DNA from: Eledone cirrhosa | Lineage: Eukaryota | Reading direction: 5' to 3' | DNA: 64,000 bases | Assembly: GCA_964016885.1 (NCBI GenBank) | Contig: OZ024743.1 | Location: 237,150,001-237,214,000 of the forward strand | Shown here: positions 29,761 to 64,000 of the stretch, piece by piece | Layout: the number at the start of each line of letters is the position of its first letter | Position numbering within the stretch: position 1 is the first letter of the stretch | The notes under the pieces: model-generated | Database searches by the model: none | What the model saw: only the letters and a program-made list of their open reading frames with translations | Told to the model about the DNA's origin: nothing | Translations under genes and position numbers: made by a program

Positions 29761-29946
29761 TGGCAGGTGGATTGGCAGTATCGGTAGAGGGTCGGACGTC
29801 ATGCTTTCCAGCATAGTTACGTCCCTTTACGATCTGAGTTCAAATCCAGCCGAGGTTAACTTTGCCTTTCATCCTTACGGGGTCGATAAAATAAAGTACC
29901 AGTAATGCACTGGGTAATTTCTGGCCTTGTGCTAATAGTAGAAACA
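29761..29946 (+). mobile_element. Full-length tRNA-derived SINE (family A) with target-site duplication
   Basis: A-box-like TGGCAGTATCGG, B-box GAGTTCAAATCC, central GCCTTTCATCCTTACGGGGTCGATAAA domain; ATTATATCTATCGTCATA repeated at 29743-29760 and 29947-29964. Confidence 0.9.
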
Positions 29947-30442
29947 ATTATATCTATCGTCATAGTTGTGTGTGTTGCTATATATATATATATATATATA
30001 TACATATATATACACACATATTAATAACAATAATAATAATAATAATAACGACAATAATAATAACGACAACAACAACAGTAATAATATACATACATACATA
30101 TACACACACACGCACACACATAAACATATCTATACACACACACACACGATAGCAACTAACATCGCTGCGATCGAATGTGGCTTTTTCGCCCAGCCAATGA
30201 TCTAAAATGTCTTGCACAGAGTCGGCAACCAAAACATTCACTGGGAATACATACATACATACATATATCCATATATACATACATATATACATACATACAT
30301 ATATACATATATACATACATATATACATACAAACATATATACATATATATATATAGATAGTGCAAATTTATACGGGGAAAAAAACAGAGAGGCAGACAAA
30401 TAAAGGTTTATTAGGTTCACGCTTTTGGGAGTGGGAGGGAAC

Positions 30443-35344: not shown

Positions 35345-35520
35345 CAGTATCGGTAGACGGTCTGACGCCATTCTTTGCGGCAAAGAGTTACGGCCCTTTA
35401 TGGTTTGAGTTCAAATCCCGCCGAGGTTAACTTTGCCTTTCATCCTTGCGGGGTCGATAAAATAAAGTACCAGTAATACACTGAGATAATTGGTGGCCTT
35501 GTGCCAAAAGTATAAACAAT
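35345..35520 (+). mobile_element. SINE family A copy
   Basis: Homologous to 29761-29946 (GAGTTCAAATCCCGCCGAGG...GGGGTCGATAAAATAAAGTACC). Confidence 0.88.
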
Positions 35521-35532
35521 TATATATATATA

Positions 35533-36971: not shown

Positions 36972-37069
36972 CTCTAATAATAATTAGACGCCTACACCAT
37001 GTTCACGGGAGAGGGAAGAGTGAATGCTTAATTAATTGCAGTAATACCCCAGCTGCAGAAGAAGAAGCA

Positions 37070-37563
37070 GATGTCAAAACCAATCACGTTATCGTCCATT
37101 CTATATTCATACCAACTTTTACCCATGTTCATAAATATTGTGCAAAGACCGAAGGAATACGATCACGAATACAAGCGGCCGAAATCGGTTTCCTCCGAAG
37201 GGTCCTTGGAGTTACATTACTCGATGCAGTGCGTAGCTCCGAGATCAGAGAGGCACTCAAGGTTGAGCCACTACTTCTCCGAATTTAGTGATGAAATATA
37301 CAACGAGCATGTGTTTACAAGGTCTCAGAAAAGAATCACCGGACAGAATTTAAAAGCGAATCAAGAGCTTTGTTGGTCTCACTTGGTGATTCAGCTAGAG
37401 ATTATTGCATCTGACAGAAACCACTGGAAGGTGTGTTTGAGGACTCTGCCCACACGACCCTCTCAGGAAGAAGAAGAAGAAGAAGAAGAAGAAGAAGAAG
37501 AAGAAGAAGAAGAAGAAGAAGAAGAAGAAGAAGAAGAAGAAGAAGAAGAAGAAGAAGAAGAAG
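37070..37563 (+). mobile_element. RTE-clade LINE 3' fragment with (GAA)n tail
   Basis: RSRIQAAEIGFLRRVLGVTLLDAVRSSEIREALKVEPLLLRI; long (GAA)n at 37468-37563. Confidence 0.85.
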
Positions 37564-37575
37564 AATTTTGTTTCA

Positions 37576-37695
37576 ATAATAATTGTTTCTACTTTAGGCA
37601 CAAGGCCAGCAATTACTCAGTGCATTACTGGTACTTTATTTTATCGACCCCGTAAGGATGAAAGGCAAAGTTAACCTCGGCGGGATTTGAACTCA
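37576..37695 (-). mobile_element. 3' half of SINE family A (starts at TGAGTTCAAATCC), fused to a Tx1 tail
   Basis: Homology to the full-length copies. Confidence 0.9.
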
Positions 37696-38670
37696 AATAA
37701 TAATAATAATGATTTCATTTATTAGCCACAAGGGCACAGGGACAGTGGGGTTTACAATAAGGTCGAGTATAAGTGCACAATGGCAAGACTAATTTAACAA
37801 TGAAGATATAAAAATATAAAATAAACTATGATTAAATATAACAAAATAAATTCCCCTATAAGGGGTGGATGACCCAGGGGTGACTCGGGTACCCCACCAA
37901 TCCTGAACCACACTGCGCTTCTAAGGCACCCAGGGAGAGCGCCCCTCTCCTCAAGTTAGCTAGCCTATAGGCGCATGGTAAGAGTAGGCCCAATCACACG
38001 AGCTATTCTCGCCACATTCACCCACCTTTTAGCAAATGTACTGGGGGGCAGCACTTCTCTCTCCACCCTCACCTTCCTTTCCAGGTGAAACTTGAAGAGT
38101 TGATGAGGGATTGGCCGAAGAGAAAAGTGTCTGTCTTCAGTCCTTTTAATCTGGTCCACCATATAACCTCTTTCGCAACGGTCACCAGACAGAGGAAAAT
38201 TGCCTGCTCTTCCTGACCTAAGGAAGGTGGCGGGTCGATCTTCACTATGGACTCGGTCGATAGCCGGATCCGTTCCACGCGCAGCAGTAGCTGTTCGACA
38301 TAACTCCACAACTCAGTAATGCACGGACATTGGACAAGTGCGTGCAGAGTAGTTTCGTCGCTCTGTGCGCATCTTGGGCAGGACCGTCTGACAGCACTTC
38401 TGTGCCTGTAGAGTTTATCCCGAACCGGCAGTGCCCTCCGGTAGCACTGCCAAGCGAGGGATTTCTGGAAATTGTCCATCGTCCCCAGCTCGAAAGTCCT
38501 CCGGTACAGACTAGTCAGTTCGACTTCGTCGAGGCCCAAAGCTTCTCCGAGTGCGTCATCACACTTGCCCACCACTAATCCTCTATAGAACTCGAGATTG
38601 GAAGTTCTACTGATCGCATTGCCCACTTGGTAGAGGGCAGTGAGTGCCTGGCAACATTCCAGGTTCCAGT
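37696..38670 (-). mobile_element. 5'-truncated Tx1/L1-clade LINE (second family): ORF2 C-terminus, 3' UTR and (ATT)n tail
   Basis: MDNFQKSLAWQCYR..LPVRDKLY..CPRCAQSDETTLHALVQC zinc-finger region homologous to 57159-60578; 3' end CCCTTGTGGCTAATAAATGAAATC(ATT)n. Confidence 0.9.
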
Positions 38671-38840
38671 AATAATAATTTTGTTTCACGTTTTGCTAAC
38701 TGGAACTTCTTGCTTTGTGTGGTCCGGCTATAACTTCGTTCGCCTCAGAAGTTCTAGATGTCGAACCGGCAAGAGCTCAGCTGCCGGGCTCCAATAGTTT
38801 CTTATATATATATACATATATATATGTGTATATATATATA

Positions 38841-39800: not shown

Positions 39801-40302
39801 ATGATATATATGTGTGTGTGTGTGTGGTGTGTGTGTGTATGTGTGTGTGTGTGTGCGTGTGCGTGCGTGCGTGTGTGTGTGTGGGGGGGGTGTCTCGTTC
39901 TGTGACAGGTGGGAATACTACTATCAGCCAAGATTTCTAGACCGTGACATATGTATTCATACACACACTTCGTTCTTGTTTTCACTCCTCTATTTCTAAC
40001 ATACATCCTGCTGGCTTTTCTAACGACAGTTTTAGCTTCGTATCTCACAATGTTTCATACAAACTATACCAAAATGATCCTAGATAATTCAGTAAATTTG
40101 TTAGTTGATAGAGCAGCAGAGTTTAGATGTGATCCAGTCAACTCTGGTTGAAACGCATATGTCAAAGCTTACGATTGACAGTTAGCTATGACTTGTGTGT
40201 ATTCCTTCTGTGTGAAATTCTGTGTTATACAAATTAATAGTTTTAAACGAAGTCTGTTGTAGTCTGGTTTTCTCTCGTTTTCTGATAGTATTTATACATA
40301 AT

Positions 40303-40490
40303 TGTTTCTACTTTGGGCACAAGGCCAGCAATTATCCCAGTACATTACTGGTACTTTATTTTATCGACCCCGTAAGGATGAAAGGCAAAGTTAACCTTGG
40401 CGGGATTTGAACTCAGATCATAAAGGGACGTAACTCTATGCTTCAAAGCATGGCGTCCGACTCTCTACCGATACTGCCAATCCACCGCCC
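40303..40490 (-). mobile_element. Full-length SINE family A with TSD
   Basis: TAGTAT[TA]TATACATAAT at 40286-40302 and 40492-40508. Confidence 0.9.
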
Positions 40491-48168: not shown

Positions 48169-50160
48169 TCGAAATATAATACGTGAATGTAATAGATAAA
48201 ATCCATGGGGTTGAAAATCGAGGACCCGAGGGCGATCGCTATCCTGTACCTTCTACCTTAGCCGGTCGCCCTCGAGTGACGTGGCCAAAGCTTACAGTGT
48301 GCTGCTACTACCGGTCAGATAAAGGAAAACAGAAAGGGATGGGAACATAAGTTAGCGTTAATCTCATGCCACAAGACAAAAGAAAGAAAGAAAGGAGGGG
48401 GAGAGAAGAAGGGGGAAGGAAGAAGAGAAGCCAGGGTTAATGTCAGATATAAGAAGAAAGACAGAAAGAAAGAGGAGGAAAGGTCGGTATTACAGTCAGG
48501 CCAGGATTGTCGCGAAAAAAAATTTTTTTTTTTTTTTATTCTACGTGACCCGTATCTAAACAACTACTACCGGTCAGATATAGGCAAACAAAAAGGGGGA
48601 AGGAAGATAAGTCTGCGGGAGGAAGACAGAAAGAGGGGAGAAGAGAAGGAAGAGAATGAAGAAGTAGAAAAGTAAGGGTTGGTGGCTACAAGAAGGAAGA
48701 TAGAAAGAAAGAGGAAGAAAGGTCGTATCAGACTACAGTCAGGCCAGGAGTGGCGCGAGAAAATGTTCACAGGGACCCGTATCTTAGCGGAGATGAATAT
48801 ATTGGGGGTCAGTGTGTTATAATGTGTGAGCAGAATATTGGAACATTACGTTTTTGTTTAGACTTATAGGATGAAATTAAAAATTTATAATTAATATTTA
48901 ATATTAAAGAAATTAGAAAATTTAAAGTTAAACAGCTTAACATTTTAAGGTTGATATATCTAATAGTTATGATTTGATCTGTAATTTAAAGGTACTATGT
49001 GGCGGTTAAAACACCGGCCGCGCTCCGGGCCCCCGGGGCGAATTAAGCCACTCCGAGTAGTTTCATTTACCGAAAGAAGGGGAAATTTATTTTTCCAAGC
49101 ACTCAAGGTAGGCCCATGCGCCAGGGGGCTGGTCGCGCCGCCATCAAAACCCACCCAACAGCCCGACAGAAAGTTGGAACTTTAAAATATTGCTTAAATT
49201 TATAGGATGAAGTTGAAAGAATTCAGAATAACATAAAATTAAAGAGTAAGAAGATTGAGAATTGAACAAACAGAAAATTGAAAATTAAACATTTAAAAAA
49301 ACTTCTATGAGGTTTTGGGTTGCGGGATTTAATTAAAGAGAGTCTTTTATGAAGAAACGCTAATTGTATTATGTAGATCTATAATTTATCCTAGTGGGAT
49401 GTAGAGTACGGGATATAGTCGTGTAATATTTATTTTTGTTCTCAGGGGGAGACATTCTAGTTTCGTGTGCTAATGGGTACAAGTGAGCAAAAGTCCCAAT
49501 AGGAGGAGTAGAAATACATGGATACATAGAAGTGGAATACGTGGAAGAGCACATTGATAAAGAAAAGGTATAAATATATAAACATATCAATATATAGATA
49601 TAAATATGTAAATAAACCAACAAGAGTGGTGTTGGAGTAAGATGGAGAAATCAAGACATAGGAGAATTACAATATAGTTCAGGTTGCAGTATTTATGTTC
49701 CCGGGGGGAGACATTCCAGTGTCGTGTGCTAAGGGTACACGCGAGTAAAAGTCCGAATAAGGGAAGTAAAAAGTACATGGATGTATAGAGGTAGAATAAG
49801 TGGGAAAGCATTAATACAGCAAACAAGAGTCGTTGTCTAGTAAATGGAGAGTTCAAGACACAGGAGAAATACAATATAGTTCAAGTTGCAGTCAGATAAT
49901 GCATATAGATGTGGAAATGGAATCAGTGTGTGTTCGAGTCTGGGAATTCAGTGTGAGTTATACATGCCCAGAAGTATAGGGTAGCGAATTTAGTTAATAC
50001 AGTGCAGTACAATACATGTTATGGTATAATCCGTAGAGTTTCGTCGAAGTCCGAATACTCTGAGAGGGAAGTAGCAATGGGCCAGGCGAAAACACCGAGT
50101 AGCCAAAGTCCGAATGGTGGTTAGATATATTCAGTCCCATGCCGCTGTTCATTATTACAC

Positions 50161-50420
50161 AGGGTCGATAAAATAAAGTACCAGTAATGCACTGGGTAAT
50201 TGCTGGCCTTGTGCCTAAAGTAGAAACAATTATTGGTGGATTGGCAGTATCGGTAGAGGGTCGGACGCCATGCTTTCCAGCATAGTTACGTCCCTTTACG
50301 ATCTGAGTTCAAATCCCGCCGAGGTTGACTTTGCCTTTCATCCTTACGGGGTCGATAAAATAAAGTACCAGTAATGCACTGGGTAATTGCTGGCCTTGTG
50401 CCAAAAGTAGAAACAATTAT
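50161..50420 (+). mobile_element. SINE family A tandem (3' fragment + near full-length copy)
   Basis: Two GGGTCGATAAAATAAAGTACC...GAAACAATTAT units; ATTATTACA on both flanks. Confidence 0.88.
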
Positions 50421-51286: not shown

Positions 51287-51338
<52 letters not shown>

Positions 51339-51342
<4 letters not shown>

Positions 51343-51454
51343 TGTTTCTACTTTAGGCACAAGGCCAGCAAATACCCAGTGCATTACTGGTACTTTATTT
51401 TATCGACCCCGTAAGGATGAAAGGCAAAGTTAACCTCGGCGGGATTTGAACTCA

Positions 51455-51455
<1 letters not shown>
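51339..51455 (-). mobile_element. 3' half of SINE family A with long (ATT)n tail, fused to the tail of Tx1 copy A
   Basis: Starts at CTGAGTTCAAATCC on the minus strand; (AAT)n on both sides. Confidence 0.9.
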
Positions 51456-51516
<61 letters not shown>

Positions 51517-51750
51517 TTTTCTTTATTAACCACAAGGGTTCACATAAAGTAGACATTAAGGACAGTACAGGACAATACAGGACGGTACAAATGGGCATTT
51601 CTGCGTGTAAAAAAACAGAGGTTGAAATAAAATAAAGAAAAATTCCCCAATAGGGGGGAGACTTCCAAGGGACATTTGTGGAGAAAGCCCAGTAAAAAGC
51701 CACAATGACCCTGACCACCAAGGCAAGTGCCCTCTCCCAGTTTTCCACCT

Positions 51751-54528
51751 TTAGTTTACTCTGATTTTCCTTTTCAAATGAAATTTGAAAAAGTCAATCA
51801 GAGCATCACCGAAGAGGTAAGTGCTCGTCTTCAGCCCTTTCAAACGTGTCCACCATACTATCTCTTTCACCATGGCCACCAGGCAGATAAAAACTGCCTG
51901 CCCTTCCCGGCTAAAGGAGGAGGGCGGGGCAATCCTCACGATGGACTCAGATGATAGCCGGATCCTCAGCCACGGCATGCCCAGCCCTCCACGTAGCGGG
52001 TGTTGACAACAGATGGACCGCCTGACCATCGGAGCGCGTCCCTTCCACAAAAAGCGAAAGAGCAAACGCTCCAGCGCAGTCAGGCGAGGCTTAGGACAAG
52101 GTACGACGGTCAGACGGTAGCAGATGACGGACGCGATGTACGCGTTAGCCACCTCCGCTCGACCTTTCAGGGATAGCTTCCTCTCCGCCCATTTCTGGGT
52201 GAGAGAAGCCACCCTGCTCGTCACCTCGTCCCAGTTTTTGTCCGTCTGGAGGTCCGGACCGAACCAGACCCCTAGCAATTTAACCGGTCCGTCCGTCCAG
52301 CGTCCGACGACGCTGTTGGACGGCATGGACCTGCCTCTCCAGGTGCCGAGCTGCAGGCCCACTGACTTTTCCTGGTTGATCATTGCTCCTGTCACCGCTT
52401 CGTATTCTCTTAGTGTAGTGCCGATCGCCTCGATGTGTTTGGCGCTCGACACCACTACGGTGACATCGTCCGCATATGCTGACACTGATCTTCCGCATCC
52501 TAGTTCGCGCGGGACTCCCCTCAACGTCTCCAGTTTGTGCAGTAATGGCTCGAGAGTCAATACGTACAAGAGGGACGAGAGGGGACATCCTTGGCGGACC
52601 GAGCGCATGATGTTGAACGGTTCCGACAGGTGACCGTTCACTCTCACCACAGAGCAGATGTCGCTGTGCATGGCAGCGATCCAGCCTCTGAAGACGGGCC
52701 CAAAGCCAGCCGCCCTCAGGACTGCCGCTAGGTAACGATGGTCGACCCTATCGAAAGCTTTCGACTGATCTAAATTGATCAAGGACCCACCCGTGCCAGG
52801 TTCCCTAGCTACCCTCTCTACGATGTATCGCATGAGGTGGAGGTTGTCGTGGATGGATCTGTCGGGAATGGCGCATGTCTGCGCCTCTCCCACCAGACCA
52901 CCAACGACAAGCGCCAACCTCTTTGCTAGCACCTTGGCCAAAATCTTAAACTCTGTGTTTAGCAGAGTTATGGGCCGGAAATTGTCTATGTTATCCCCCT
53001 TGTTCGGATCCTTTCTCAGCAGTGCCACCGCTCCTCGGCTCACAGAACTGGGAATTCTCCCGTTCTGTTGCCAGTTGTAGTAGACGTCCGCCAAGAGGCC
53101 TCCGAACAAGTCTGGCATCTGTACGTAAAGTTCATAGGGCAGACCATCCAAACCAGGCGATTTACCCCTTGTGCAGCCAGTCATTGCCTCCCTTACTTCA
53201 GCGGCTGTTATCGGCTTTTCGCAACACTTCGCCTCAGTGGCCGAGAGCCGCGGCAGTCCGTCGAGGTAGACACTAAAGTCCATCCCTCTACCCGGCCCCC
53301 CGCTGCCCCCGAACAGCTGAGCGAAGTGTCGCTGAAAAGCTTCACACATTTGCCCGGGATCGAGTAGCATGCGCCCGTCGTGGTCCACCAAAGACCGGAT
53401 CGTGGCTTTGTTGCCACGACGCGCCTCCGCCACTCGGGCCCATTGAACGGCTTTCGTCCCCTCGTGTCTGAGAGCACGCACCCTAGCTCTGACAACGCAG
53501 CCTTCGTGCTTTGCATTGAAGAATTGGTCAAGGGCCAATTTCGCCGCAAGCACGTCGGTCGCAATGCCTTTGCTAAGCGCCTCGTCTAATTTTTTAACTA
53601 GTTCTCCCTCTGCTCTATTTTTCTCTATTGCTAAAGCCTTACTAAACCTAATCGATTCTATTCTAATCGCTCTTTTCAGAGCAAACCACCACTTGTTGTT
53701 GACGATGGCCCCCGTCAACGCCCGCTTAACTAGTTCGCTAATTCGGTCTCTGTAGGCCTTGCGCGCTGGTAAGGACGCGTTTAGCTTCCAGTAGCCGGGT
53801 CCTCGTCTATGAAGCCTATCTAAGTCAAGCACACAGGTCACGAATTTGTGGTCCGTGTAGCTGACTATCTTGAATTGTGGACAGCCTATGCTAGACCTAT
53901 CTATTTCCCTACAAAATACTCTATCTAGATATGATCTGGATGACCCTATGCGGTTTGTCCAAGTCCACATTGGCACATTCGGGAAATCCAATCGGTACCT
54001 GTCAGACAGTTCAAAACGCCTGAGCAGGTTGGTGAGGCTCTTGCACCCTCCACCCCTATCCGCTAATCCCACACAGTCCCAGCGTGCATCTAAGATCCCG
54101 TTCCAGTCGCCCACTAACACTAAAGAGCGGGACGTTCCAAGAAAGGTCTCCAGACGCCGGAAGAAATCAGGCCGCCCTGCTCCTGTCGGGGCATAGACGG
54201 CCACTAGCCTGAAAGCTTGCCCGTCTCCGCTGGTCACGTCCAGCACCACCAGCTTACCCTCTGGGTCCAGGAAGATGGCCCGTATGGCGAGATCCAAACC
54301 TCTCCGAAAAAGCACAGCAACTCCTCCACCCGATCCAGGACGGCTGGGAGATGCGTACACATCGTAGCCGCCGAAGATCGGTGCGAAGGCCCGTGCTTCG
54401 GAGATTCTGGTCTCGCTGATGGCCACTACATCTATGTTTAGTGACCTGAGGTCGTTGAGCAGGTGACCCTGCTTCCATGACGACCCCAAGCCACGCGCAT
54501 TTATGCTGCCTATTCTGAGTGAGGTCAT
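51751..54528 (-). CDS. ORF2: APE endonuclease + RT, C-terminal zinc finger deleted
   Basis: SINARGL, ISET, GDWN, SYLDRV, TDH; KSPGLDG, FRPITLLN, LDQSKAFDRV, RQGCPLS, AYADD. Confidence 0.93.
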   Translation of the reverse strand: MTSLRIGSINARGLGSSWKQGHLLNDLRSLNIDVVAISETRISEARAFAPIFGGYDVYASPSRPGSGGGVAVLFRRGLDLAIRAIFLDPEGKLVVLDVTSGDGQAFRLVAVYAPTGAGRPDFFRRLETFLGTSRSLVLVGDWNGILDARWDCVGLADRGGGCKSLTNLLRRFELSDRYRLDFPNVPMWTWTNRIGSSRSYLDRVFCREIDRSSIGCPQFKIVSYTDHKFVTCVLDLDRLHRRGPGYWKLNASLPARKAYRDRISELVKRALTGAIVNNKWWFALKRAIRIESIRFSKALAIEKNRAEGELVKKLDEALSKGIATDVLAAKLALDQFFNAKHEGCVVRARVRALRHEGTKAVQWARVAEARRGNKATIRSLVDHDGRMLLDPGQMCEAFQRHFAQLFGGSGGPGRGMDFSVYLDGLPRLSATEAKCCEKPITAAEVREAMTGCTRGKSPGLDGLPYELYVQMPDLFGGLLADVYYNWQQNGRIPSSVSRGAVALLRKDPNKGDNIDNFRPITLLNTEFKILAKVLAKRLALVVGGLVGEAQTCAIPDRSIHDNLHLMRYIVERVAREPGTGGSLINLDQSKAFDRVDHRYLAAVLRAAGFGPVFRGWIAAMHSDICSVVRVNGHLSEPFNIMRSVRQGCPLSSLLYVLTLEPLLHKLETLRGVPRELGCGRSVSAYADDVTVVVSSAKHIEAIGTTLREYEAVTGAMINQEKSVGLQLGTWRGRSMPSNSVVGRWTDGPVKLLGVWFGPDLQTDKNWDEVTSRVASLTQKWAERKLSLKGRAEVANAYIASVICYRLTVVPCPKPRLTALERLLFRFLWKGRAPMVRRSICCQHPLRGGLGMPWLRIRLSSESIVRIAPPSSFSREGQAVFICLVAMVKEIVWWTRLKGLKTSTYLFGDALIDFFKFHLKRKIRVN

Positions 54529-54563
54529 GTTTAAAATAGAGTGGAAAAGATGGGAAAGACCAC

Positions 54564-56642
54564 TTACCGTACTTTTGGTAGAGGAGGGATGGTTTTTACA
54601 TCCCTTTTCACTTGATCGTCTGGTGAAGGGACCGTTGAATCGTCCCTTCGGCTGGTCGTCGGCTCTTCTAAGAGAATGTCTGAGTATACTCTTCGATTGA
54701 TGGTTCCTCCTAGGTCCCTGAAATCACCAACTGCGTTGGGGAATTTCGTTTTAATGTTTGTGTATTGTTTCTGTGCTATTTTTAGCAGTCTTATGTTAGT
54801 TGGCGTTTTGATTGGTGCTGGTATTATGTAGTCCTGTTGTGAAATGTCTGTGTGTTCAATTATGTAAGTCATTAGTTTCTTGTTGTGTGTATTTATTGCC
54901 GTGCATTTGTTTTTCTGGGGGTGGGGTGTGGTTCTACTATTTTCTTGTCGTTGTTGCTGGGTGTGTGTGTTTTGTTGTTGTGTTTGCGATGTTGGTGCTT
55001 GTGGTGGTGGTGTTAAAGGTGTTGTTGGCGGTGGTGATGGTGGTGCTAGTGTGGGTGGTGATGGTGTTGGTGTTGTTGCTGCTGTGGGTCTCTTTGCAGT
55101 AGACTTTACCCTTTTCTCATTTCTTTCCTCCCTTTTCAAAGGCGACGATGCGCTGCTTCTGCGTTTGTGCCTTCTTACGACCTTTTGCCATCCCTCTCCC
55201 ACCTCACACTCCATGTCTGATTCTGTGAGGTCGGGGAGGGGTACCAGCTCCACTCTTTCACTTGTTGTTGGTGATGTTTGCACTGGAGTCTCTGTTGCAG
55301 CTGCATTTGGTATTGCTGTTGTTGTTGTTAATATTTCCACTGCTGCTGCTGTTTTTGATTTCCGTGGAGTGGGTATGGGTGCCACGGACCTATCGTTCCT
55401 GGTTGCCGCTTGTCCTGTTGCTGGTAGCCGTGGAGCCGGATTCGGAAGGAGGGGGGTTTTCTCCTTTCTCAGGGTCTTCTCGTTGCAGAAGGCCCTGAGG
55501 TGAGTCTTCGATCCACAGCGAAAGCATTTCGGGCGTTTGCCCTCAACACTTATGGACAGTTGAGTGCCGTTATCGAAGTCTATCACATCCGGGATAGCTT
55601 CGATGCACTCCTGGTTGGTTTGGATTAGCATCTCAATGGAGGAGCCGACCCAATCTTCTCTTACTTTTTTCTGTACTTGCAGTACAGTTGTTTTGTCCTC
55701 GATTCCGACGAGGACAGACGCGGCCAGCCAAGAAGGGGTCATTCCGGGGGGGACGTGGGTTAGTTTGACCCTCACAATTTTTTGCCCACAGTAGGAGGGC
55801 ACCAACACCATTTCCTCGCTCCTTAGGGTCACTACTGATTGGGCCTTTGCCTCCTGGGGTGTGGCAAAAAGTACGTCTACGGTGGCATATTTTTTGCCTC
55901 GGGTGATGTGCGTTTTCCGCTGCCACACAGACCCCAAGGCTTTTTGTATTTGGGCCTCTGTGGCTCTTTCCACCCTACGGGATTTTGTACTTACTGTACG
56001 GTACGTGGCCGTACAGTGCTCTTGGGTTTCGAAAAATTTTTCCGCTGCCTTGCAGATTGCTCGGTGTCCGTTCTTTGTAACCATCTTCTTCGCTTCCTCT
56101 AATTCCTCATTTGTTATGAGGATTGTTTCCAAGTTTTTCGCAATACCTGCAAATGAGATTGGTTTTTCTCTGCTGTTGTTGTTGTCGTCAGAGCTGCTGG
56201 TACTTTTGTTGTTGCTGCAGGTACTACGACTACTGCCTCCGCCGCTGTTGCTGTGGTTGTTGTTGGTGTTGCTGCTGCTAATGCTGTTGTTGTTTATGCT
56301 GCTGGTGATGCTGTTGCGGCTGCTACTGTTGTTTTCATTGTCACTGTTGCTGTTGTTATTACGGCTGCTACTGCTATTATTCCTGACGTCAGACGAATGA
56401 ACTGGGTTTTCGTATTTCCCGCACACCTGTTTCGTCGCTGTCGTCGTCGTCGTGGAGAAACTTTGCACGCTTTGCACGAGACTTTTCTTTTCTTTCGTCA
56501 CTTGCGAAAGAGAAGGGAGGGAGAGAGACACATTTAAAGAAGGGAGGGAGAGAGACAATCTTCTCTCTGCTGTAGTGATGATTGAGGAAGAAGAAGACGG
56601 AATGAGTGGGAGTGACGTATGAAATTTCTTTTTCGTAGCCAT
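54564..56642 (-). CDS. ORF1: nucleic-acid-binding protein with CCHC knuckle and low-complexity N/S and P/T tracts
   Basis: CFRCGSKTHLRAFC; lies upstream of ORF2; conserved in copy B. Confidence 0.9.
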   Translation of the reverse strand: MATKKKFHTSLPLIPSSSSSIITTAERRLSLSLPSLNVSLSLPSLSQVTKEKKSLVQSVQSFSTTTTTATKQVCGKYENPVHSSDVRNNSSSSRNNNSNSDNENNSSSRNSITSSINNNSISSSNTNNNHSNSGGGSSRSTCSNNKSTSSSDDNNNSREKPISFAGIAKNLETILITNEELEEAKKMVTKNGHRAICKAAEKFFETQEHCTATYRTVSTKSRRVERATEAQIQKALGSVWQRKTHITRGKKYATVDVLFATPQEAKAQSVVTLRSEEMVLVPSYCGQKIVRVKLTHVPPGMTPSWLAASVLVGIEDKTTVLQVQKKVREDWVGSSIEMLIQTNQECIEAIPDVIDFDNGTQLSISVEGKRPKCFRCGSKTHLRAFCNEKTLRKEKTPLLPNPAPRLPATGQAATRNDRSVAPIPTPRKSKTAAAVEILTTTTAIPNAAATETPVQTSPTTSERVELVPLPDLTESDMECEVGEGWQKVVRRHKRRSSASSPLKREERNEKRVKSTAKRPTAATTPTPSPPTLAPPSPPPTTPLTPPPQAPTSQTQQQNTHTQQQRQENSRTTPHPQKNKCTAINTHNKKLMTYIIEHTDISQQDYIIPAPIKTPTNIRLLKIAQKQYTNIKTKFPNAVGDFRDLGGTINRRVYSDILLEEPTTSRRDDSTVPSPDDQVKRDVKTIPPLPKVR

Positions 56643-56857
56643 GTTGTTTTTTTGTTTAAAATGAATATTGGGTACAAAACCCCAATAACTGGTTATTTAG
56701 CCCCGAAGGGCCAAATAACGGACAGAAAGACCCCTCTCACGAGGAGGAGGGTGTCTTTATCAACAATTTGGTTCAAGTTTTAAACAATTTACAATTGTTT
56801 TAACGGTTAAAAATTACTATACCTTACAGAGCCGAGCCTCCGTCAACCATGGCATTC

Positions 56858-56898
<41 letters not shown>

Positions 56899-57158
56899 TT
56901 TCTTTATTAACCACAAGGGTTTACATAAAGTAGACATTAAGGACAGTGCAGGACAATGCAGGACGGTACAAATGGGCATTTCTGCGTGTAAAAAAACAAA
57001 AACAGAGGATGTAACAAAAATAACAATGAAAATAACAATGAAAAATTCCCCAATAGGGGGGAGACTTCAGAGGGACATTTGTGGAGAAAGCCCAGTAAAA
57101 AGCCACAATGACCCTGACCACCAAGGCAAGTGCCCTCTCCCAGTTTTCCACCTTTAGT

Positions 57159-60100
57159 TTACAGATATATACTCAGAGTCGGCCCATTCACTCGGGCCAT
57201 TCTTGCTTCTCTCACCCATCTTTCAACAAAATGCTGGGAAGAGAGCACTTCCTTCTCTACTCTGATTTTCCTTTTCAAATGAAATTTGAAAAAGTCAATC
57301 AGAGCATCACCGAAGAGGTAAGTGCTCGTCTTCAGCCCTTTCAAACGTGTCCACCATACTATCTCTTTCGCCATGGCCACCAGACAGATAAAAACTGCCT
57401 GCCCTTCCCGGCTAAAGGAGGAGGGCGGGGCAATCCTCACGATAGACTCAGATGATAGCTGGATCCGTCCTAAACGCGACAGCAGGTGTTCGACATAAAC
57501 CCACAAGTCAGCAATTTTCGGACACTGGACGAGTGCGTGCAGGACGGTTTCGTCGCCCTGCGCGCATCTCGGACATGCCCGGCTGACGGCACCTCCATGC
57601 CTGTAGAGTTTATCCCGAACTGGCAAGGCTCCTCGGTAGCACTGCCAGGCCAGAGATTTCTGGAAGTTGTCCATAGGCCCTGGCCCGAAAGTTCTTCCGA
57701 AGAGATTGGCTAGTTGATTTTCGTCGACGCCTAGAGTTTCCCCAAGTACGTCGTCGCTCTTCCCCTCCACTAATCCTCTATAGAACGCCGAGGTGGAGTT
57801 TCCACCGATCACATTGCCCGATTGGTCGAGGGCTGTGAGCGCCTGAAGACATTCCAGTCTCCAGGCGCTCCCTCTCGGTCTTCGCTTGACCCAGGACTGC
57901 AGCTCCGTCAAGGAAACGAGCTGGGGAAAAACGCGTCTAGCAAACGGCGACCACACCTGATCACCGTCGAGGAAGAGGTGGAGATGTCGTAGCCTGAGCG
58001 CGTGCCTGCGCATCATCAGCCACGGCATGCCCAGCCCTCCACGTAGCGGGTGTTGACAACAGATGGACCGCCTGACCATCGGAGCACGTCCCTTCCACAA
58101 AAAGCGAAAGAGCAAACGCTCCAGCGCAGTCAGGCGAGGCTTAGGACAAGGTACGACGGTTAGGCGGTAGCAGATGACAGACGCGATGTACGCGTTAGCC
58201 ACCTCCGCTCGACCTTTCAGGGATAGCTTCCTCTCCGCCCATTTCTGGGTGAGAGAAGCCACCCTGCTCGTCACCTCGTCCCAGTTTTTGTCCGTCTGGA
58301 GGTCCGGACCGAACCAGACCCCTAGCAATTTAACCGGTCCGTCCGTCCAGCGCCCGACGACGCTGTTGGACGGCATGGACCTGCCTCTCCAGGTGCCGAG
58401 CTGCAGGCCCACTGACTTTTCCTGGTTGATCATTGCTCCTGTCACCGCTTCGTATTCTCTTAGTGTAGTGCCGATCGCCTCGATGTGTTTGGCGTTCGAC
58501 ACCACTACGGTGACATCGTCCGCATATGCTGACACGGATCTTCCGCATCCTAGTTCGCGCGGGACCCCCCTCAACGTCTCCAGTTTGTGCAGTAATGGCT
58601 CGAGAGTCAATACGTACAAGAGGGACGAGAGGGGACATCCTTGGCGGACCGAGCGCATGATGTTGAACGGTTCCGACAGGTGACCGTTCACTCTCACCAC
58701 AGAGCAGATGTCGCTGTGCATGGCAGCGATCCAGCCTCTGAAGACGGGCCCAAAGCCAGCCGCCCTCAGGACTGCCGCTAGGTAACGATGGTCGACCCTA
58801 TCGAAAGCTTTCGACTGATCTAAATTGATCAAGGACCCACCCGTGCCAGGTTCCCTAGCTACCCTCTCTACGATGTATCGCATGAGGTGGAGGTTGTCGT
58901 GGATGGATCTGTCGGGAATGGCGCATGTCTGCGCCTCTCCCACCAGACCACCAACGACAAGCGCCAACCTCTTTGCTAGCACCTTGGCCAAAATCTTAAA
59001 CTCTGTGTTTAGCAGAGTTATGGGCCGGAAATTGTCTATGTTATCCCCCTTGTTCGGATCCTTTCTCAGCAGTGCCACCGCTCCTCGGCTCACAGAACTG
59101 GGAATTCTCCCGTTCTGTTGCCAGTTGCAGTAGACGTCCGCCAAGAGGCCTCCGAACAAGTCTGGCATCTGTACGTAAAGTTCATAGGGCAGACCATCCA
59201 AACCAGGCGATTTACCCCTTGTGCAGCCAGTCATTGCCTCCCGTACTTCAGCGGCTGTTATCGGCTTTTCGCAACACCTCGCCTCAGTGGCCGAGAGCCG
59301 CGGCAGTCCGTCGAGGTAGACACTAAAGTCCATCCCTCTACCCGGCCCCCCGCTGCCCCCGAACAGCTGAGCGAAGTGTCGCTGAAAAGCTTCACACATT
59401 TGCCCGGGATCGAGTAGCATGCGCCCGTCGTGGTCCACCAAAGACCGGATCGTGGCTTTGTTGCCACGACGCGCCTCCGCCACTCGGGCCCATTGAACGG
59501 CTTTCGTCCCCTCGTGTCTGAGAGCACGCACCCTAGCTCTGACAACGCAGCCTTCGTGCTTTGCATTGAAGAATTGGTCAAGGGCCAATTTCGCCGCAAG
59601 CACGTCGGTCGCAATGCCTTTGCTAAGCGCCTCGTATAATTTTCTAACTAGTTCTCCCTCTGCTCTATTTTTCTCTATTGCTAAAGCCTTACTAAACCTA
59701 ATCGATTCTATTCTAATCGCTCTTTTCAGAGCAAACCACCACTTGTTGTTGACGATGGCCCCCGTCAACGCCCGCTTAACTAGTTCGCTAATCCGGTCTC
59801 TGTAGGCCTTGCGCGCTGGTAAGGACGCGTTTAGCTTCCAGTAGCCGGGTCCTCGTCTATGAAGCCTATCTAAGTCAATCACACAGGTCACGAATTTGTG
59901 GTCCGTGTAGCTGACTATCTTGAATTGTGGACAGCCTATGCTAGACCTATCTATTTCCCTACAAAATACTCTATCTAGATATGATCTGGATGACCCTATG
60001 CGGTTTGTCCAAGTCCACATTGGCACATTCGGGAAATCCAATCGGTACCTGTCAGACAGTTCAAAACGCCTGAGCAGGTTGGTGAGGCTCTTGCACCCTC

Positions 60101-60578
60101 CACCCCTATCCGCTAATCCCACACAGTCCCAGCGTGCATCTAAGATCCCGTTCCAGTCGCCCACTAACACTAAAGAGCGGGACGTTCCAAGAAAGGTCTC
60201 CAGACGCCGGAAGAAATCAGGCCGCCCTGCTCCTGTCGGGGCATAGACGGCCACTAGCCTGAAAGCTTGCCCGTCTCCGCTGGTCACGTCCAGCACCACC
60301 AGCTTACCCTCTGGGTCCAGGAAGATGGCCCGTATGGCGAGATCCAAACCTCTCCGAAAAAGCACAGCAACTCCTCCACCCGATCCAGGACGGCTGGGAG
60401 ATGCGTACACATCGTAGCCGCCGAAGATTGGTGCGAAGGCCCGTGCTTCGGAGATTCTGGTCTCGCTGATGGCCACTACATCTATGTTTAGTGACCTGAG
60501 GTCGTTGAGCAGGTGACCCTGCTTCCATGACGACCCCAAGCCACGCGCATTTATGCTGCCTATTCTGAGTGAGGTCAT
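57159..60578 (-). CDS. ORF2: APE endonuclease + RT + C-terminal CCHC zinc finger (1139 aa)
   Basis: As copy A plus GGLGMP and CPRCAQGDETVLHALVQC. Confidence 0.96.
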   Translation of the reverse strand: MTSLRIGSINARGLGSSWKQGHLLNDLRSLNIDVVAISETRISEARAFAPIFGGYDVYASPSRPGSGGGVAVLFRRGLDLAIRAIFLDPEGKLVVLDVTSGDGQAFRLVAVYAPTGAGRPDFFRRLETFLGTSRSLVLVGDWNGILDARWDCVGLADRGGGCKSLTNLLRRFELSDRYRLDFPNVPMWTWTNRIGSSRSYLDRVFCREIDRSSIGCPQFKIVSYTDHKFVTCVIDLDRLHRRGPGYWKLNASLPARKAYRDRISELVKRALTGAIVNNKWWFALKRAIRIESIRFSKALAIEKNRAEGELVRKLYEALSKGIATDVLAAKLALDQFFNAKHEGCVVRARVRALRHEGTKAVQWARVAEARRGNKATIRSLVDHDGRMLLDPGQMCEAFQRHFAQLFGGSGGPGRGMDFSVYLDGLPRLSATEARCCEKPITAAEVREAMTGCTRGKSPGLDGLPYELYVQMPDLFGGLLADVYCNWQQNGRIPSSVSRGAVALLRKDPNKGDNIDNFRPITLLNTEFKILAKVLAKRLALVVGGLVGEAQTCAIPDRSIHDNLHLMRYIVERVAREPGTGGSLINLDQSKAFDRVDHRYLAAVLRAAGFGPVFRGWIAAMHSDICSVVRVNGHLSEPFNIMRSVRQGCPLSSLLYVLTLEPLLHKLETLRGVPRELGCGRSVSAYADDVTVVVSNAKHIEAIGTTLREYEAVTGAMINQEKSVGLQLGTWRGRSMPSNSVVGRWTDGPVKLLGVWFGPDLQTDKNWDEVTSRVASLTQKWAERKLSLKGRAEVANAYIASVICYRLTVVPCPKPRLTALERLLFRFLWKGRAPMVRRSICCQHPLRGGLGMPWLMMRRHALRLRHLHLFLDGDQVWSPFARRVFPQLVSLTELQSWVKRRPRGSAWRLECLQALTALDQSGNVIGGNSTSAFYRGLVEGKSDDVLGETLGVDENQLANLFGRTFGPGPMDNFQKSLAWQCYRGALPVRDKLYRHGGAVSRACPRCAQGDETVLHALVQCPKIADLWVYVEHLLSRLGRIQLSSESIVRIAPPSSFSREGQAVFICLVAMAKEIVWWTRLKGLKTSTYLFGDALIDFFKFHLKRKIRVEKEVLSSQHFVERWVREARMARVNGPTLSIYL

Positions 60579-60613
60579 GTTTAAAATAGAGTCGAAAAGA
60601 TGGGAAAGACCAC

Positions 60614-62710
60614 TTACCGTACTTTTGGTAGAGGAGGGATGGTTTTTACATCCCTTTTCACTTGATCGTCTGGTGAAGGGACCGTTGAATCGTCCCTTCG
60701 GCTGGTCGTCGGCTCTTCTAAGAGAATGTCTGAATATACTCTTCGATTGATGATTCCTCCTAGGTCCCTGAAATCACCAACTGCGTTGGGGAATTTCGTT
60801 TTAATGTTTGTGTATTGTTTCTGTGCTATTTTTAGCAGTCTTATGTTAGTTGGCGTTTTGATTGGTGCTGGTATTATGTAGTCCTGTTGTGAAATGTCTG
60901 TGTGTTCAATTATGTAAGTCATTAGTTTCTTGTTGTGTGTGTTTATTGCCGTGCATTTGTTTTTCTGGGGGTGGGGTGTGGTTCTGCTATTTTCTTGTCG
61001 TTGTTGCTGGGTGTGTGTGTTTTGTTGTTGTGTTTGCGATGTTGGTGCTTGTGGTGGTGGTGTTGAAGGTGTTGTTGGCGGTGGGGTTGTCGCCGGTGGT
61101 GATGGTGGTGCTGGTGTGGGTGGTGATGGTGTTGGTGGTGTTGCTGCTGTGGGTCTCTTTGCAGTAGACTTTACCCTTTTCTCATTTCTTTCCTCCCTTT
61201 TCAAAGGCGACGATGCGCTGCTTCTGCGTTTGTGCCTTCTTGCGACCTTTTGCCATCCCTCTCCCACCTCACACTCCATGTCTGATTCTGTAAGGTCGGG
61301 GAGGGGTACCAGCTCCACTCTTTCACTTGTTGTTGTTGGTGATGTTTGCACTGGAGTCTCTGTTGCAGCTGCATTTGGTATTGCTGTTGTTGTTGTTAAT
61401 ATTTCCACTGCTGCTGCTGTCTTTGATTTCCGTGGAGTGGGTATGGGTGCCACGGACCTATCGTTCCTGGTTGCCGCTTGTCCTGTTGCTGGTAGCCGTG
61501 GAGCCGGATTCGGAAGGAGGGGGGTTTTCTCCTTTCTCAGGGTCTTCTCGTTGCAGAAGGCCCTGAGGTGAGTCTTCGATCCACAGCGAAAGCATTTCGG
61601 GCGTTTGCCCTCAACACTTATGGGCAGTTGAGTGCCGTTATCGAAGTCTATCACATCCGGGATAGCTTCGATGCACTCCTGGTTGGTTTGGATTAGCATC
61701 TCAATGGAGGAGCCGACCCAATCTTCTCTTACTTTTTTCTGTACTTGCAGTACAGTTGTTTTGTCCTCGATTCCGATTAGGACAGACGCGGCCAGCCAAG
61801 AAGGGGTCATTCCGGGGGGGACGTGGGTCAGTTTGACCCTCACAATTTTTTGCCCACAGTAGGAGGGCACCAACACCATTTCCTCGCTCCTTAGGGTCAC
61901 TACTGATTGGGCCTTTGCCTCCTGGGGTGTGGCAAAAAGTACGTCTACGGTGGCATATTTTTTGCCTCGGGTGATGTGCGTTTTCCGCTGCCACACAGAC
62001 CCTAAGGCTTTTTGTATTTGGGCCTCTGTGGCTCTTTCCACCCTACGGGATTTTGTACTTACTGTACGGTACGTGACCGTACAGTGCTCTTGGGTTTCGA
62101 AAAAATTTTTCGCTGCCTTGCAGATTGCTCGGTGTCCGTTCTTTGTCACCATCTTCTTCGCTTCCTCTAATTCCTCATTTGTTATGAGGATTGTTTCCAA
62201 GTTTTTCGCAATACCTGCAAATGAGATTGGTTTTTCTCTGCTGTTGTTGTTGTCGTCAGAGCTGCTGGTACTTTTGTTGTTGCTGCAGGTACTACGACTA
62301 CTGCCTCCGCCGCTGTTGCTGTGGTTGTTGTTGGTGTTGCTGCTGCTAATGCTGTTGTTGTTTATGCTGCTGGTGATGCTGTTGCGGCTGCTACTGTTGT
62401 TTTCATTGTCACTGTTGCTGTTGTTATTACGGCTGCTACTGCTATTATTCCTGACGTCAGACGAATGAACTGGGTTTTCGTATTTCCCGCACACCTGTTT
62501 CGTCGCTGTCGTCGTCGTCGTGGAGAAACCTTGCACGCTTTGCACGAGACTTTTCTTTTCTTTCGTCACTTGCGAAAGAGAAGGGAGGGAGAGAGACACA
62601 TTTAAAGAAGGGAGGGAGAGAGACAATCTTCTCTCTGCTGTAGTGATGATTGAGGAAGAAGAAGACGGAATGAGTGGGAGTGACGTATGAAATTTCTTTT
62701 TCGTAGCCAT
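60614..62710 (-). CDS. ORF1 (698 aa)
   Basis: Nearly identical to 54564-56642. Confidence 0.92.
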   Translation of the reverse strand: MATKKKFHTSLPLIPSSSSSIITTAERRLSLSLPSLNVSLSLPSLSQVTKEKKSLVQSVQGFSTTTTTATKQVCGKYENPVHSSDVRNNSSSSRNNNSNSDNENNSSSRNSITSSINNNSISSSNTNNNHSNSGGGSSRSTCSNNKSTSSSDDNNNSREKPISFAGIAKNLETILITNEELEEAKKMVTKNGHRAICKAAKNFFETQEHCTVTYRTVSTKSRRVERATEAQIQKALGSVWQRKTHITRGKKYATVDVLFATPQEAKAQSVVTLRSEEMVLVPSYCGQKIVRVKLTHVPPGMTPSWLAASVLIGIEDKTTVLQVQKKVREDWVGSSIEMLIQTNQECIEAIPDVIDFDNGTQLPISVEGKRPKCFRCGSKTHLRAFCNEKTLRKEKTPLLPNPAPRLPATGQAATRNDRSVAPIPTPRKSKTAAAVEILTTTTAIPNAAATETPVQTSPTTTSERVELVPLPDLTESDMECEVGEGWQKVARRHKRRSSASSPLKREERNEKRVKSTAKRPTAATPPTPSPPTPAPPSPPATTPPPTTPSTPPPQAPTSQTQQQNTHTQQQRQENSRTTPHPQKNKCTAINTHNKKLMTYIIEHTDISQQDYIIPAPIKTPTNIRLLKIAQKQYTNIKTKFPNAVGDFRDLGGIINRRVYSDILLEEPTTSRRDDSTVPSPDDQVKRDVKTIPPLPKVR

Positions 62711-62925
62711 GTTGTTTTTTGTTTAAAATGAAATTTTGGGTACAAAACCCCAATAACTGGTTATTTAACCCCGAAGGGCCAAATAACGGACAGAAAGACC
62801 CCTCTCACGAGGAGGAGGGTGTCTTTATCAACAATTTGGTTCAAGTTTTAAACAATTTACAATTGTTTTAACGGTTAAAAATTACTATACCTTACAGAGC
62901 CGAGCCTCCGTCAACCATGGCATTC

Positions 62926-62963
<38 letters not shown>

Positions 62964-64000
62964 TTTCTTTATTAACCACAAGGGTTTACATAAAGTAGAC
63001 ATTAAGGACAGTGCAGGACAATGCAGGACGGTACAAATGGGCATTTCTGCGTGTAAAAAAAACAAAAACAGAGGATGTAACAAAAATAACAATGAAAATA
63101 ACAATGAAAAATTCCCCAATAGGGGGGAGACTTCGGAGGGACATTTGTGGAGAAAGCCCAGTAAAAAGCCACAATGACCCTGACCACCAAGGCAAGTGCC
63201 CTCTCCCAGTTTTCCACCTTTAGTTTACAGATATATACTCAGAGTCGGCCCATTCACTCGGGCCATTCTTGCTTCTCTCACCCATCTTTCAACAAAATGC
63301 TGGGAAGAGAGCACTTCCCTCTCTACTCTGATTTTCCTTTTCAAATGAAATTTGAAAAAGTCAATCAGAGCATCACCGAAGAGGTAAGTGCTCGTCTTCA
63401 GCCCTTTCAAACGTGTCCACCATACTATCTCTTTCGCCATGGCCACCAGACAGATAAAAACTGCCTGCCCTTCCCGGCTAAAGGAGGAGGGCGGGGCAAT
63501 CCTCACGATGGACTCAGATGATAGCTGGATCCGTCCTAAACGCGACAGCAGGTGTTCGACATAAACCCACAAGTCAGCAATTTTCGGACACTGGACGAGT
63601 GCGTGCAGGACGGTTTCGTCGCCCTGTGCGCATCTCGGACATGCCCGGCTGACGGCACCTCCATGCCTGTAGAGTTTATCCCGAACTGGCAAGGCTCCTC
63701 GGTAGCACTGCCAGGCCAGAGATTTCTGGAAGTTGTCCATAGGCGCTGGCCCGAAAGTTCTTCCGAAGAGATTGGCTAGTTGATTTTCGTCGACGCCTAG
63801 AGTTTCCCCAAGTACGTCGTCGCTCTTCCCCTCCACTAATCCTCTATAGAAAGCCGAGGTGGAGTTTCCACCGATCACATTGCCCGATTGGTCGAGGGCT
63901 GTGAGCGCCTGAAGACATTCCAGTCTCCAGGCGCTCCCTCTCGGTCTTCGCTTGACCCAGGACTGCAGCTCCGTCAAGGAAACGAGCTGGGGAAAAACGC
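62926..64000 (-). mobile_element. Tx1/L1-clade LINE copy C (3' portion; continues beyond the window)
   Basis: Nearly identical to the 3' 1.07 kb of copy B, including the ORF2 C-terminus at 63225-63977. Confidence 0.95.

Follow-up and report, generated by a model that had tools for sequence, protein, structure and literature searches.

Does a LINE fragment that is joined to half a SINE, with a single target site duplication (TSD) around both, record one integration event or two? The question is raised by a composite at positions 37564-38688 of the window, by which we mean the whole 64-kb stretch of DNA analysed here. The original prediction held that one TSD implies one event, and that a chimeric LINE-SINE cDNA had been integrated, made either by template switching or from a read-through transcript. 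The window is repeat-rich animal DNA and contains a 25-kb satellite of a 36-bp unit.

A LINE fragment and a SINE half within one TSD

On the minus strand the composite reads as originally described: a truncated Tx1-like ORF2 end with its 3' UTR, an (ATT)5 tail, a SINE 3' half and a further ATT tail (Table 1). The 12-bp direct repeat is likewise present in two exact copies. These copies, at 37564 and 38677, are the only ones in the 64-kb window, and neither side allows any extension. Because a shared non-repetitive word of at least 12 nt was found in 12 of 5000 random pairs (0.0024) of 40-nt windows lying 0.9-1.4 kb apart, we rejected a repeat arising by chance. The ORF2 end carries one frameshift (a 1-nt gap near 38098) and is 67% identical in amino acids to the intact ORF2 at 57159-60773. 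The ATT tail behind the SINE half (8-9 nt) exceeds that of every free SINE copy.

The claim that no SINE 5' half lies beyond the LINE piece was also borne out. In the 1 kb upstream, the best local scores of the SINE head were 19-22, against self scores of 136-146, and were matched by 73-160 of 200 shuffles; SINE heads occur in the window only at the four near-full SINE copies. Insertion of the LINE into a resident full SINE at 37.6 kb is therefore rejected. The SINE motif had no match in a set of genome contigs, which is not a collection of eukaryotic genomes, and the composite had none among plasmids.

Table 1. Coordinates of the composites, the LINE array and the SINE copies within the window
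Feature	Position	Strand	Remarks
Free near-full SINE, reference copy	29763..29951	+	18-bp TSD starting TC/ATTAT
Free SINE, head short by about 13 nt	35345..35523	+	no readable TSD
Decayed LINE-like 3' fragment ending in (GAA)33	36987..37565	+	abuts left TSD copy
TSD copy, 3' end of composite	37564..37575	.	exact 12-mer, 2 occurrences in window
ATT-repeat tail behind SINE half	37576..37583	-	8 nt; 9 including first TSD base
SINE 3' half (SINE with putative tRNA head)	37584..37695	-	starts just before B-box-like motif
Predicted 3'-terminal stem-loop of SINE	37597..37607	-	3-bp stem, loop CUUGU; same as that of LINE lineage
(ATT)5 tail of Tx1-like fragment	37696..37710	-	starts TC/ATTAT, as at free SINE insertions
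3' UTR of Tx1-like fragment	37711..37964	-	stem-loop (37725-37735) and AATAAA at its end
5'-truncated ORF2 end (C-terminal zinc-binding region)	37965..38669	-	zf-RVT, E 4e-9
Extra ATT repeat at 5' junction	38670..38676	.	7 nt
TSD copy, 5' end of composite	38677..38688	.	exact 12-mer
Free full SINE, reference copy	40298..40489	-	17-bp TSD (1 mismatch) starting TC/ATTAT
SINE dimer	50159..50420	+	single 9-bp TSD around both, starting TC/ATTAT
Second composite: (ATT)18 tail behind SINE half	51287..51342	-	
Second composite: SINE 3' half	51343..51455	-	starts 1 nt upstream of start of 37.6-kb half
Second composite: (ATT)20 tail of array copy C	51456..51515	-	
Array of three head-to-tail Tx1-like copies	51516..64000	-	
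Array copy C	51516-56857	-	two internal deletions
Array copy B	56897-62925	-	intact
Array copy A	62962 to window end	-	array 5' end beyond base 64000

The length of the TSD depends on the seven ATT-repeat nucleotides of the 5' junction, which are either untemplated or slipped nucleotides or part of a 19-bp TSD. The latter may hold (38670-38688) if the decayed neighbour with the (GAA)33 end came later with a 4-bp duplication, in which case this element may have split the left TSD copy. The 11-mer at 38670-38680 occurs three times in the window, the other occurrences being in one SINE tail and at 36975, just past the far end of the decayed neighbour. A 19-bp TSD is also near the lengths of the SINE TSDs. 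The neighbour had no match in Pfam, in a protein search or in the Atlas; its protein resemblance suggests an RTE-like element, and it appears more decayed than the composite, which tells against a later arrival.

The LINE and its relatives

Array copy B, the intact one, encodes an ORF2 with Exo_endo_phos (3e-14), RVT_1 (1e-28) and zf-RVT (6e-8) domains (Pfam). Against solved structures, ORF2 matched L1 ORF2p over residues 4-853 (E 4e-52) and R2 (E 1e-21), these being the sole non-LTR types represented among the 14 matches. ORF1 had no match in Pfam; a CCHC knuckle is visible in it, and Atlas feature matches of 0.90-0.93 to zf-CCHC/ZCCHC3-type RNA-binding clusters provide a lead. A type I ORF1, with an RRM and a CCHC knuckle and distinct from the mammalian type, is given as a criterion of the Tx1/diverse-L1 group (PMC5203782). 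Judged by its ORF2 domains, its likeness to L1 and its CCHC-bearing ORF1, the LINE appears to fit this group.

A quick tree of 95 RT rows places the window protein in a clade of 41 rows with its relatives (SH-aLRT 100), and an element inserted in a U1 gene sits in a neighbouring branch. Since the tree contains no named Tx1 reference (Tx1L, Keno, Kibi, Koshi), "Tx1-like" is the fair label. Of the 44 loci yielded by the scan of genome contigs, a single assembly record supplied 40; its contigs are arrays of relatives of about 41% amino acid identity and are evidently eukaryotic DNA within a bacterial bin. No tRNA or Rfam RNA was found at the joints of close relatives (27 and 12 of the 44 loci scanned). 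A more distant relative (L039, 28% amino acid identity) is inserted at about nucleotide 37 of a U1 snRNA gene.

The SINE copies

The window holds seven SINE copies of at most about 190 nt each, three of them with a readable TSD. By eye, the SINE head shows A-box-like and B-box-like motifs; as a tRNA, it gave no gene with ARAGORN and no Rfam match at E up to 10. We take the SINE to resemble those of octopus, a likeness that would point to a cephalopod origin of the window. In the dimer, a 5'-truncated copy (50159-50234) is directly followed by a near-full one (50235-50420). The halves in the two composites are among the least diverged copies, with no private difference in the 37.6-kb half and one in the 51-kb half, against 1-4 in the other copies. 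Two variants of the 37.6-kb half are shared with a free copy.

A second composite at the end of a LINE array

Missed by the original prediction, a second joint between a LINE tail and a SINE half lies at 51455/51456, in a composite at 51287-51515. The tail is that of copy C, in an array of three head-to-tail copies. Between copies B and C, about 4960 columns show 41 differences, with the 3' UTR of C more diverged. The two joints within the array consist of (ATT)13 and (ATT)12 alone, and neither (0/2) has SINE sequence or a SINE-derived TSD. The 5' end of the array copies was also considered as a captured small RNA, a candidate rejected for lack of a credible Rfam match.

The LINE piece at 37.6 kb and the array copies belong to separate subfamilies (75% nucleotide identity, dS 0.73, dN 0.20), whereas the two SINE halves differ at 3 of 112 columns (97% identical). 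With LINEs so far apart and SINE halves near-identical, the SINE half was either gained by recent, separate acquisitions or transferred. We therefore rejected the idea that the 3' end of the LINE has long included it as an integral part, which is also opposed by the largely unalignable UTRs of the LINEs and by the two of four LINE ends that lack a SINE half.

A predicted 3' stem-loop shared by the LINE and the SINE

In the last 22 nt before the tail, 15 positions match between the SINE halves and LINE copies B and C. When ends were compared anchored at the tail, P was about 0.001 for the halves against B and C, and 0.001-0.055 across the full set of 18 pairs. When the anchor was dropped, 11 of 12 pairs of LINE and SINE ends gave no significant local alignment (P 0.018-0.53), and support for a shared end comes only from the tail-anchored and structure-based tests.

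A stem around CTTGT can form in all 11 LINE and SINE ends of the window, with three Watson-Crick pairs in ten and a G-U pair in one. Elsewhere such stems are scarce: a 3-bp Watson-Crick stem is present at 14 of the 177 CT[TCA]GT sites in the window, and ten of these 14 are LINE or SINE ends. The core three pairs are preserved in 13 of 13 aligned ends, with compensatory double changes from G-C to C-G in window LINEs and from G-C to A-U in copies B and C. Stem covariation was 0.333, against 0.128 +/- 0.046 in shuffles (0/500), a count that is no probability, as it reflects about two independent double changes among related rows from which the structure itself was picked. When 60-nt ends were folded freely, their stability was ordinary (z -0.15 to -0.68), and the small stem-loop appeared in two of three.

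The element extends to the relatives. With overlapping loci entering the count more than once, GGCCT[TC]GTGCC was found in 42 of the 48 ORF2 ends of relatives with enough downstream DNA; four more carry a loop variant, and the two without the motif lie outside the clade. The same 11-mer is present in six of the seven window SINE copies. Thus, the stem-loop, with its loop CU(U/C/A)GU just before the tail, is conserved down to relatives of 41% amino acid identity. In stringent LINEs, ORF2 is described as binding a 3' stem-loop (PMC4176376). By this analogy, and given the shared stem-loop, we infer that the SINE is mobilised by this LINE lineage, of which it is likely the non-autonomous partner.

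A recurring breakpoint at a predicted SINE head hairpin

The two SINE halves break within 1 nt of each other, which under uniform truncation has a probability of 0.019 (n=2). Both breakpoints lie 2-3 nt inside a long hairpin predicted for the SINE head, at its 3' foot. For 14 nt of its helix, pairing is predicted with a probability of about 0.9 in three of the four near-full copies, and the fourth folds differently. The energy of the hairpin is not unusual (z-score -0.6 for the head, -0.2 for the whole SINE), and there are no double changes in it among the four copies. We rejected ATT microhomology as what sets the breakpoint because it is in phase in only one of the two joints; in two of the four near-full copies, no 8-mer is more ATT-like than the one preceding the breakpoint.

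There is a precedent for such recurrence in fungal LINE chimeras, where six pairs with an identical switch site and hairpins predicted just upstream are reported, microhomology was not needed for switching, and stalling at the hairpin was proposed to explain the recurrent sites (PMC2104539). The head hairpin could likewise explain the recurrence of the breakpoint with no need for an endonuclease site in the SINE. Such stalling, as modelled, would serve nested insertion and template jumping equally.

Target sites and stacking of copies

All three readable SINE TSDs (18, 17 and 9 bp) start with TC/ATTAT and overlap the SINE's own end. In the window, TC precedes 16 of 166 ATTAT sites, or 16 of 86 outside ATT runs. 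Three of the four LINE tails open with the same heptamer, including that of the 37.6-kb composite, and the tail of copy C opens with AC/ATTAT. The outer site of the 37.6-kb composite lacks TC/ATTAT (0/1, against 3/3 for free SINE copies). Extra ATT units follow the SINE in both halves and in none of five free copies (p 0.048). By eye, TGA[A/G] lies at most 1 nt from the tail end at all six junctions behind LINE tails and SINE halves, two of which are inside the SINE.

Each of the four LINE tails in the window is directly trailed by another LINE or SINE copy. The same was seen in the relatives at 40 of 40 resolved 3' ends (43 found, three of them too near the locus end), in loci of one biased assembly record. 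The trailing copies are full-length in 38 cases and 5'-truncated with non-homologous joints in two. As for the spacers in these arrays, one family has 17 nt before full and truncated copies alike, and another (L023) has almost none. The LINE lineage has a habit of stacking copies at its 3' ends, which is compatible with re-insertion and with template jumping alike. By the yardstick for target preference in Tx1 LINEs, more than 20% of flanks being of a single type, the window sample is small and that of the relatives biased.

Order of events

In tandem or nested SINE insertion, a later copy lands in the tail or 3' junction of an earlier element, and the TSD of the first element encloses both. 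A SINE that arrived late in the (ATT)n tail would thus leave the LINE's own TSD around the pair, so that one enclosing TSD is no proof of one event. On this point, the original argument for a single chimeric cDNA fails. It had rightly excluded a LINE entering a resident SINE but had overlooked a SINE entering a LINE tail; of its two single-event routes, the jump between templates is unlikely and the read-through less likely still. We rank the readings by judgement estimates, which were not computed. Explanations at the RNA level are made more reasonable by the shared 3' stem-loop and the recurring breakpoint.

Our tentative preference, at a little under an even chance, is for two steps: an insertion of the LINE, followed at a later time by copying of the SINE into the ATT tail of that LINE. 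The enzyme of the same LINE would copy the SINE RNA, recognising it by the stem-loop before the tail. It would favour TC/ATTAT and ATT-rich sites, the AUUAU end of the RNA pairing with the nicked target. As the 3' end of the LINE would itself recreate a site of the TC/ATTAT type, new LINE copies (hence arrays) and SINEs would pile up there, duplicating ATT units alone. Reverse transcription of the SINE RNA would stop 2-3 nt inside the head hairpin, giving the same truncation point twice, and the outer repeat would be the LINE fragment's own TSD.

Three observations favour this order. Both halves and no free copy are followed by extra ATT units, where the rest of the LINE tail would be expected; the outer site lacks the TC/ATTAT of SINE-primed insertions; and the low divergence of the halves is more readily explained by fresh SINE RNA than by a resident copy of some age. 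Others count against it. With SINE TSDs of 18, 17 and 9 bp, the 8-9 nt of ATT at 37.6 kb mean that a short TSD or a contraction is needed. The tail of copy C opens with AC rather than TC before ATTAT, and the outer site is not TC/ATTAT although the same enzyme is assumed to have cut it. Moreover, no measurable gap in age separates the LINE piece from the SINE half (at 45 conserved columns, 4 changes in the former and 5 in the latter; CpG asymmetry 12 versus 8). A template jump is an equally good or better account of the SINE dimer with its single 9-bp TSD, and TGA[A/G] at the six junctions fits an endonuclease site in the SINE.

Some of these counterpoints also fit a single event by template jump, an alternative that we consider unlikely and that is the best placed of the rivals. 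Here, the enzyme would prime on SINE RNA by way of the shared stem-loop, stall at the head hairpin, jump to the (AUU)n end of a LINE RNA and go on copying, leaving a single TSD. The 3' stem-loop common to both elements, the breakpoint at a predicted hairpin foot as described for fungal LINE chimeras (PMC2104539), the SINE dimer inside one TSD, the near-absence of a spacer at array joints in one related family and the similar apparent age of both parts all speak for it. Both parts also lie in the same orientation within one TSD, as a single event requires. Such an event would equally make the outer 3' junction resemble those of free SINEs, since the SINE would have primed; the observed junction has extra ATT and no TC/ATTAT, in small numbers. 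In addition, jumps would have to be frequent enough to mark both terminal LINE ends within 39 kb, and the described chimeras, as far as these accounts detail them, mostly have the LINE at the 3' side (Alu/L1, U6/L1, WEIRD/MGL). A variant in which one composite master existed, its cDNA switching to RNAs of other subfamilies through the ATT tail, must contend with the three differences between the halves and with the two variants that the 37.6-kb half shares with a free copy. In a broader proposal, the LINE lineage would know its RNA by the conserved stem-loop, which the SINE has copied, and its reverse transcriptase would as a rule begin on SINE RNA, be arrested at the foot of the hairpin and move over to LINE RNA. 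This would give both the arrays and a chimera with a fixed breakpoint across subfamilies, opposite in polarity to U6/L1 and Alu/L1, but it seems to us doubtful.

The TGA[A/G] junctions would also fit a LINE that targets the SINE. The LINE would insert just before the SINE B box, and read-through would then move the LINE together with the SINE half as a 3' transduction, reverse transcription beginning at the stem-loop tail of the SINE. That two subfamilies end at the same SINE position, with TGA[A/G] at inner and outer junctions, agrees with this, as do the reported preference of Tx1 families for fixed positions in transposons and small-RNA genes (PMC4494074) and the U1 snRNA gene site of the 28%-identical relative. 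We nevertheless regard it as quite improbable. The internal array joints show no SINE-derived TSD (0/2), no SINE or tRNA was found at the joints of relatives, the composite itself sits in non-SINE DNA, and SINEs bearing this recognition element are inserted at unrelated ATTAT sites. By their differences, the halves appear more recent than a resident copy usually is, and the hairpin supplies a reason for the breakpoint other than targeting.

The reverse order, with a truncated SINE first (its 19-bp TSD ending in ATT) and the LINE later entering the ATT at the SINE 5' junction, would explain the ATT repeats on both sides of the LINE piece (38670-38679 and 37696-37710), a TSD close to the 17-18 bp of free SINEs and the ATT-like 8-mer before the breakpoint in two of four near-full copies, but is very improbable given an outer 3' junction unlike those of free SINEs, microhomology in phase at one joint of two and the need for the decayed neighbour to be the later insertion.

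Meaning of the composites

As a locus, the composite is one among many nested retroposon piles, and nested retroposons, chimeric retrotranscripts and target-preferring Tx1 families are already known. Its main value is at the family level, as a likely stringent-type LINE/SINE pair in the animal L1/Tx1 group, in which shared tails are rare according to the survey in PMC3747384. Should the SINE be abundant in its genome, the likely source of its enzyme would be named. The locus also illustrates that a TSD around two elements does not prove a chimeric cDNA, while the recurring breakpoint offers a feature, countable genome-wide, by which nested insertion, template jumping and SINE targeting could be told apart. 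Within titles and abstracts, there was no description of the composite with its fixed joint between LINE tail and SINE half, or of a stem-loop common to a SINE with a putative tRNA head and a LINE lineage of the animal L1/Tx1 group; Repbase Reports, subscription papers and supplements may cover them.

Comparison with known systems

The closest setting is that of the Tx1-clade LINEs with target preference, such as Tx1L in Tx1D, Tx1-Mar in Mariner-N4_AMi and Keno in U2, with Kibi and Koshi in microsatellites and SINEU mobilised by a Tx1 family (Kojima 2015, PMC4494074). Our system resembles these in its L1/Tx1-type ORF2, its zinc-knuckle ORF1, the association with a repeat at a fixed position, the tandem insertion of LINE and SINE and the likely mobilisation of a SINE by such a LINE (PMC4494074). 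It differs in the nature of the link: in the account of SINEU-1 given there, this is a common target preference with no shared 3' terminus, whereas here it is a shared 3' stem-loop (PMC4494074). Moreover, unlike in the SINEU system (PMC4494074), the SINE head appears tRNA-like here, and what recurs next to the SINE is the tail of the LINE itself.

With stringent LINE/SINE pairs (L2, CR1, RTE and monocot L1), the pair shares a short conserved loop, a variable stem and a simple-repeat tail (PMC3747384, PMC4176376). The survey of such pairs lists three SINEs with L1-clade tails among over 800 L1-clade LINEs, in plants and a green alga (PMC3747384). Unlike these L1-group pairs as surveyed, the LINE here is of the animal L1/Tx1 group, and no more than about 20 nt are shared (PMC3747384).

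Chimeric retrotranscripts (U6/L1, Alu/L1 and MINE of Magnaporthe) also have their parts in the same orientation within one TSD, and junctions near predicted hairpins (10.1101/2025.02.02.635956, PMC2104539). In contrast to them, the polarity is reversed here, with the LINE at the 5' and the SINE at the 3' side, and the joint is the simple-repeat tail of the LINE, so that nested insertion gives the same picture. Tandem Alu elements, in which SINEs are described as inserting into the tails of earlier retroposons (PMC3415434), are the counterpart of the two-step order that we favour. They differ from the composites described here, which have ATT rather than poly(A) tails, a fixed 5' truncation point and a LINE lineage that forms head-to-tail arrays.

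LINE arrays in the window and in related contigs

The last part of the window is taken up by a minus-strand, head-to-tail array of Tx1-like LINEs (coordinates of this and other features are collected in the table). Copy B of this array retains both reading frames intact, ORF1 as a frame of 702 aa and ORF2 of 1138 aa, and copy C carries deletions of ~543 nt and ~98 nt near its 3' end, with short microhomologies. Loci recovered by searching genome contigs for relatives of this LINE (L001-L038, L041 and L042, on the CAXXMW01 contigs of a bacterial MAG) are likewise mostly head-to-tail LINE arrays. They comprise several LINE families and are tail-less, with a period of 6.4-6.8 kb, and their units terminate at a stem-loop, a hairpin and AATAAA. 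These contigs are evidently eukaryotic DNA within a bacterial bin, and the arrays are possibly satellite-like or located at chromosome ends.

Repeats and retroelements surrounding the composite

Repeats and retroelements detected in the window, and U1-related stretches of locus L039
Feature	Coordinates	Description
Satellite	1-25175	36-bp unit, 25 kb, ~699 copies, 95% match
Minisatellite	25600-26235	64-bp unit, after the 36-bp satellite
Two RT-coding elements	27371-29826; 31627-33416	opposite orientations, 70% identical
504-bp repeat	31127-31628 (direct); 33319-33818 (inverted)	accompanies the RT-coding elements
179-bp direct repeat	36147-36325; 36767-36944	98% identical
Palindrome	41720-41838	119 bp, near-perfect, (TA)n runs either side
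LTR retrotransposon	42196-46448	LTRs of 304 bp, 99.7% identical
550-bp inverted repeats	48052-48592; 50460-51014	96% identical, ~1.9 kb enclosed
SINE dimer	50159-50420	76-nt truncated copy, then near-full copy
LINE array	51516-64000	three copies
U1-related stretches	3036-3236; ~9990-10170 (in L039)	

The LTR retrotransposon, which has frames for protease, RT, RNase H and integrase, is a recent insertion. The two RT-coding elements match RVT_1 weakly and look Penelope-like. GC skew is strong in the 36-bp satellite.

The 179-bp direct repeats are separated by 440 bp of pyrimidine-rich DNA, with (TA)n at the flanks, and may form a small non-autonomous element. The palindrome, which has a diverged partial relative at 38760-38842, just outside the right target-site duplication (TSD) of the Tx1-like/SINE composite, is MITE-like. 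The 550-bp inverted repeats possibly delimit a non-autonomous DNA transposon, with the SINE dimer region nested inside. A single 9-bp TSD encloses both copies of this dimer, which may have arisen by template jump or by insertion into the tail. In the SINE copy at 35345, the first base coincides exactly with the 5' foot of the hairpin predicted for the SINE head.

A distant relative associated with U1

Locus L039, from the same search, holds a more distant member of the L1/Tx1 group (28% aa identity) with intact ORF1 and ORF2. A literature search turned up no published description of this element. The 5' side of the element bears a complete U1 gene and flank, and its 3' end is an A-run fused to U1 snRNA at ~nt 37; it is apparently a U1-targeting element. 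The short pieces that come next in L039, after this U1 arrangement, presumably resemble histone gene starts.
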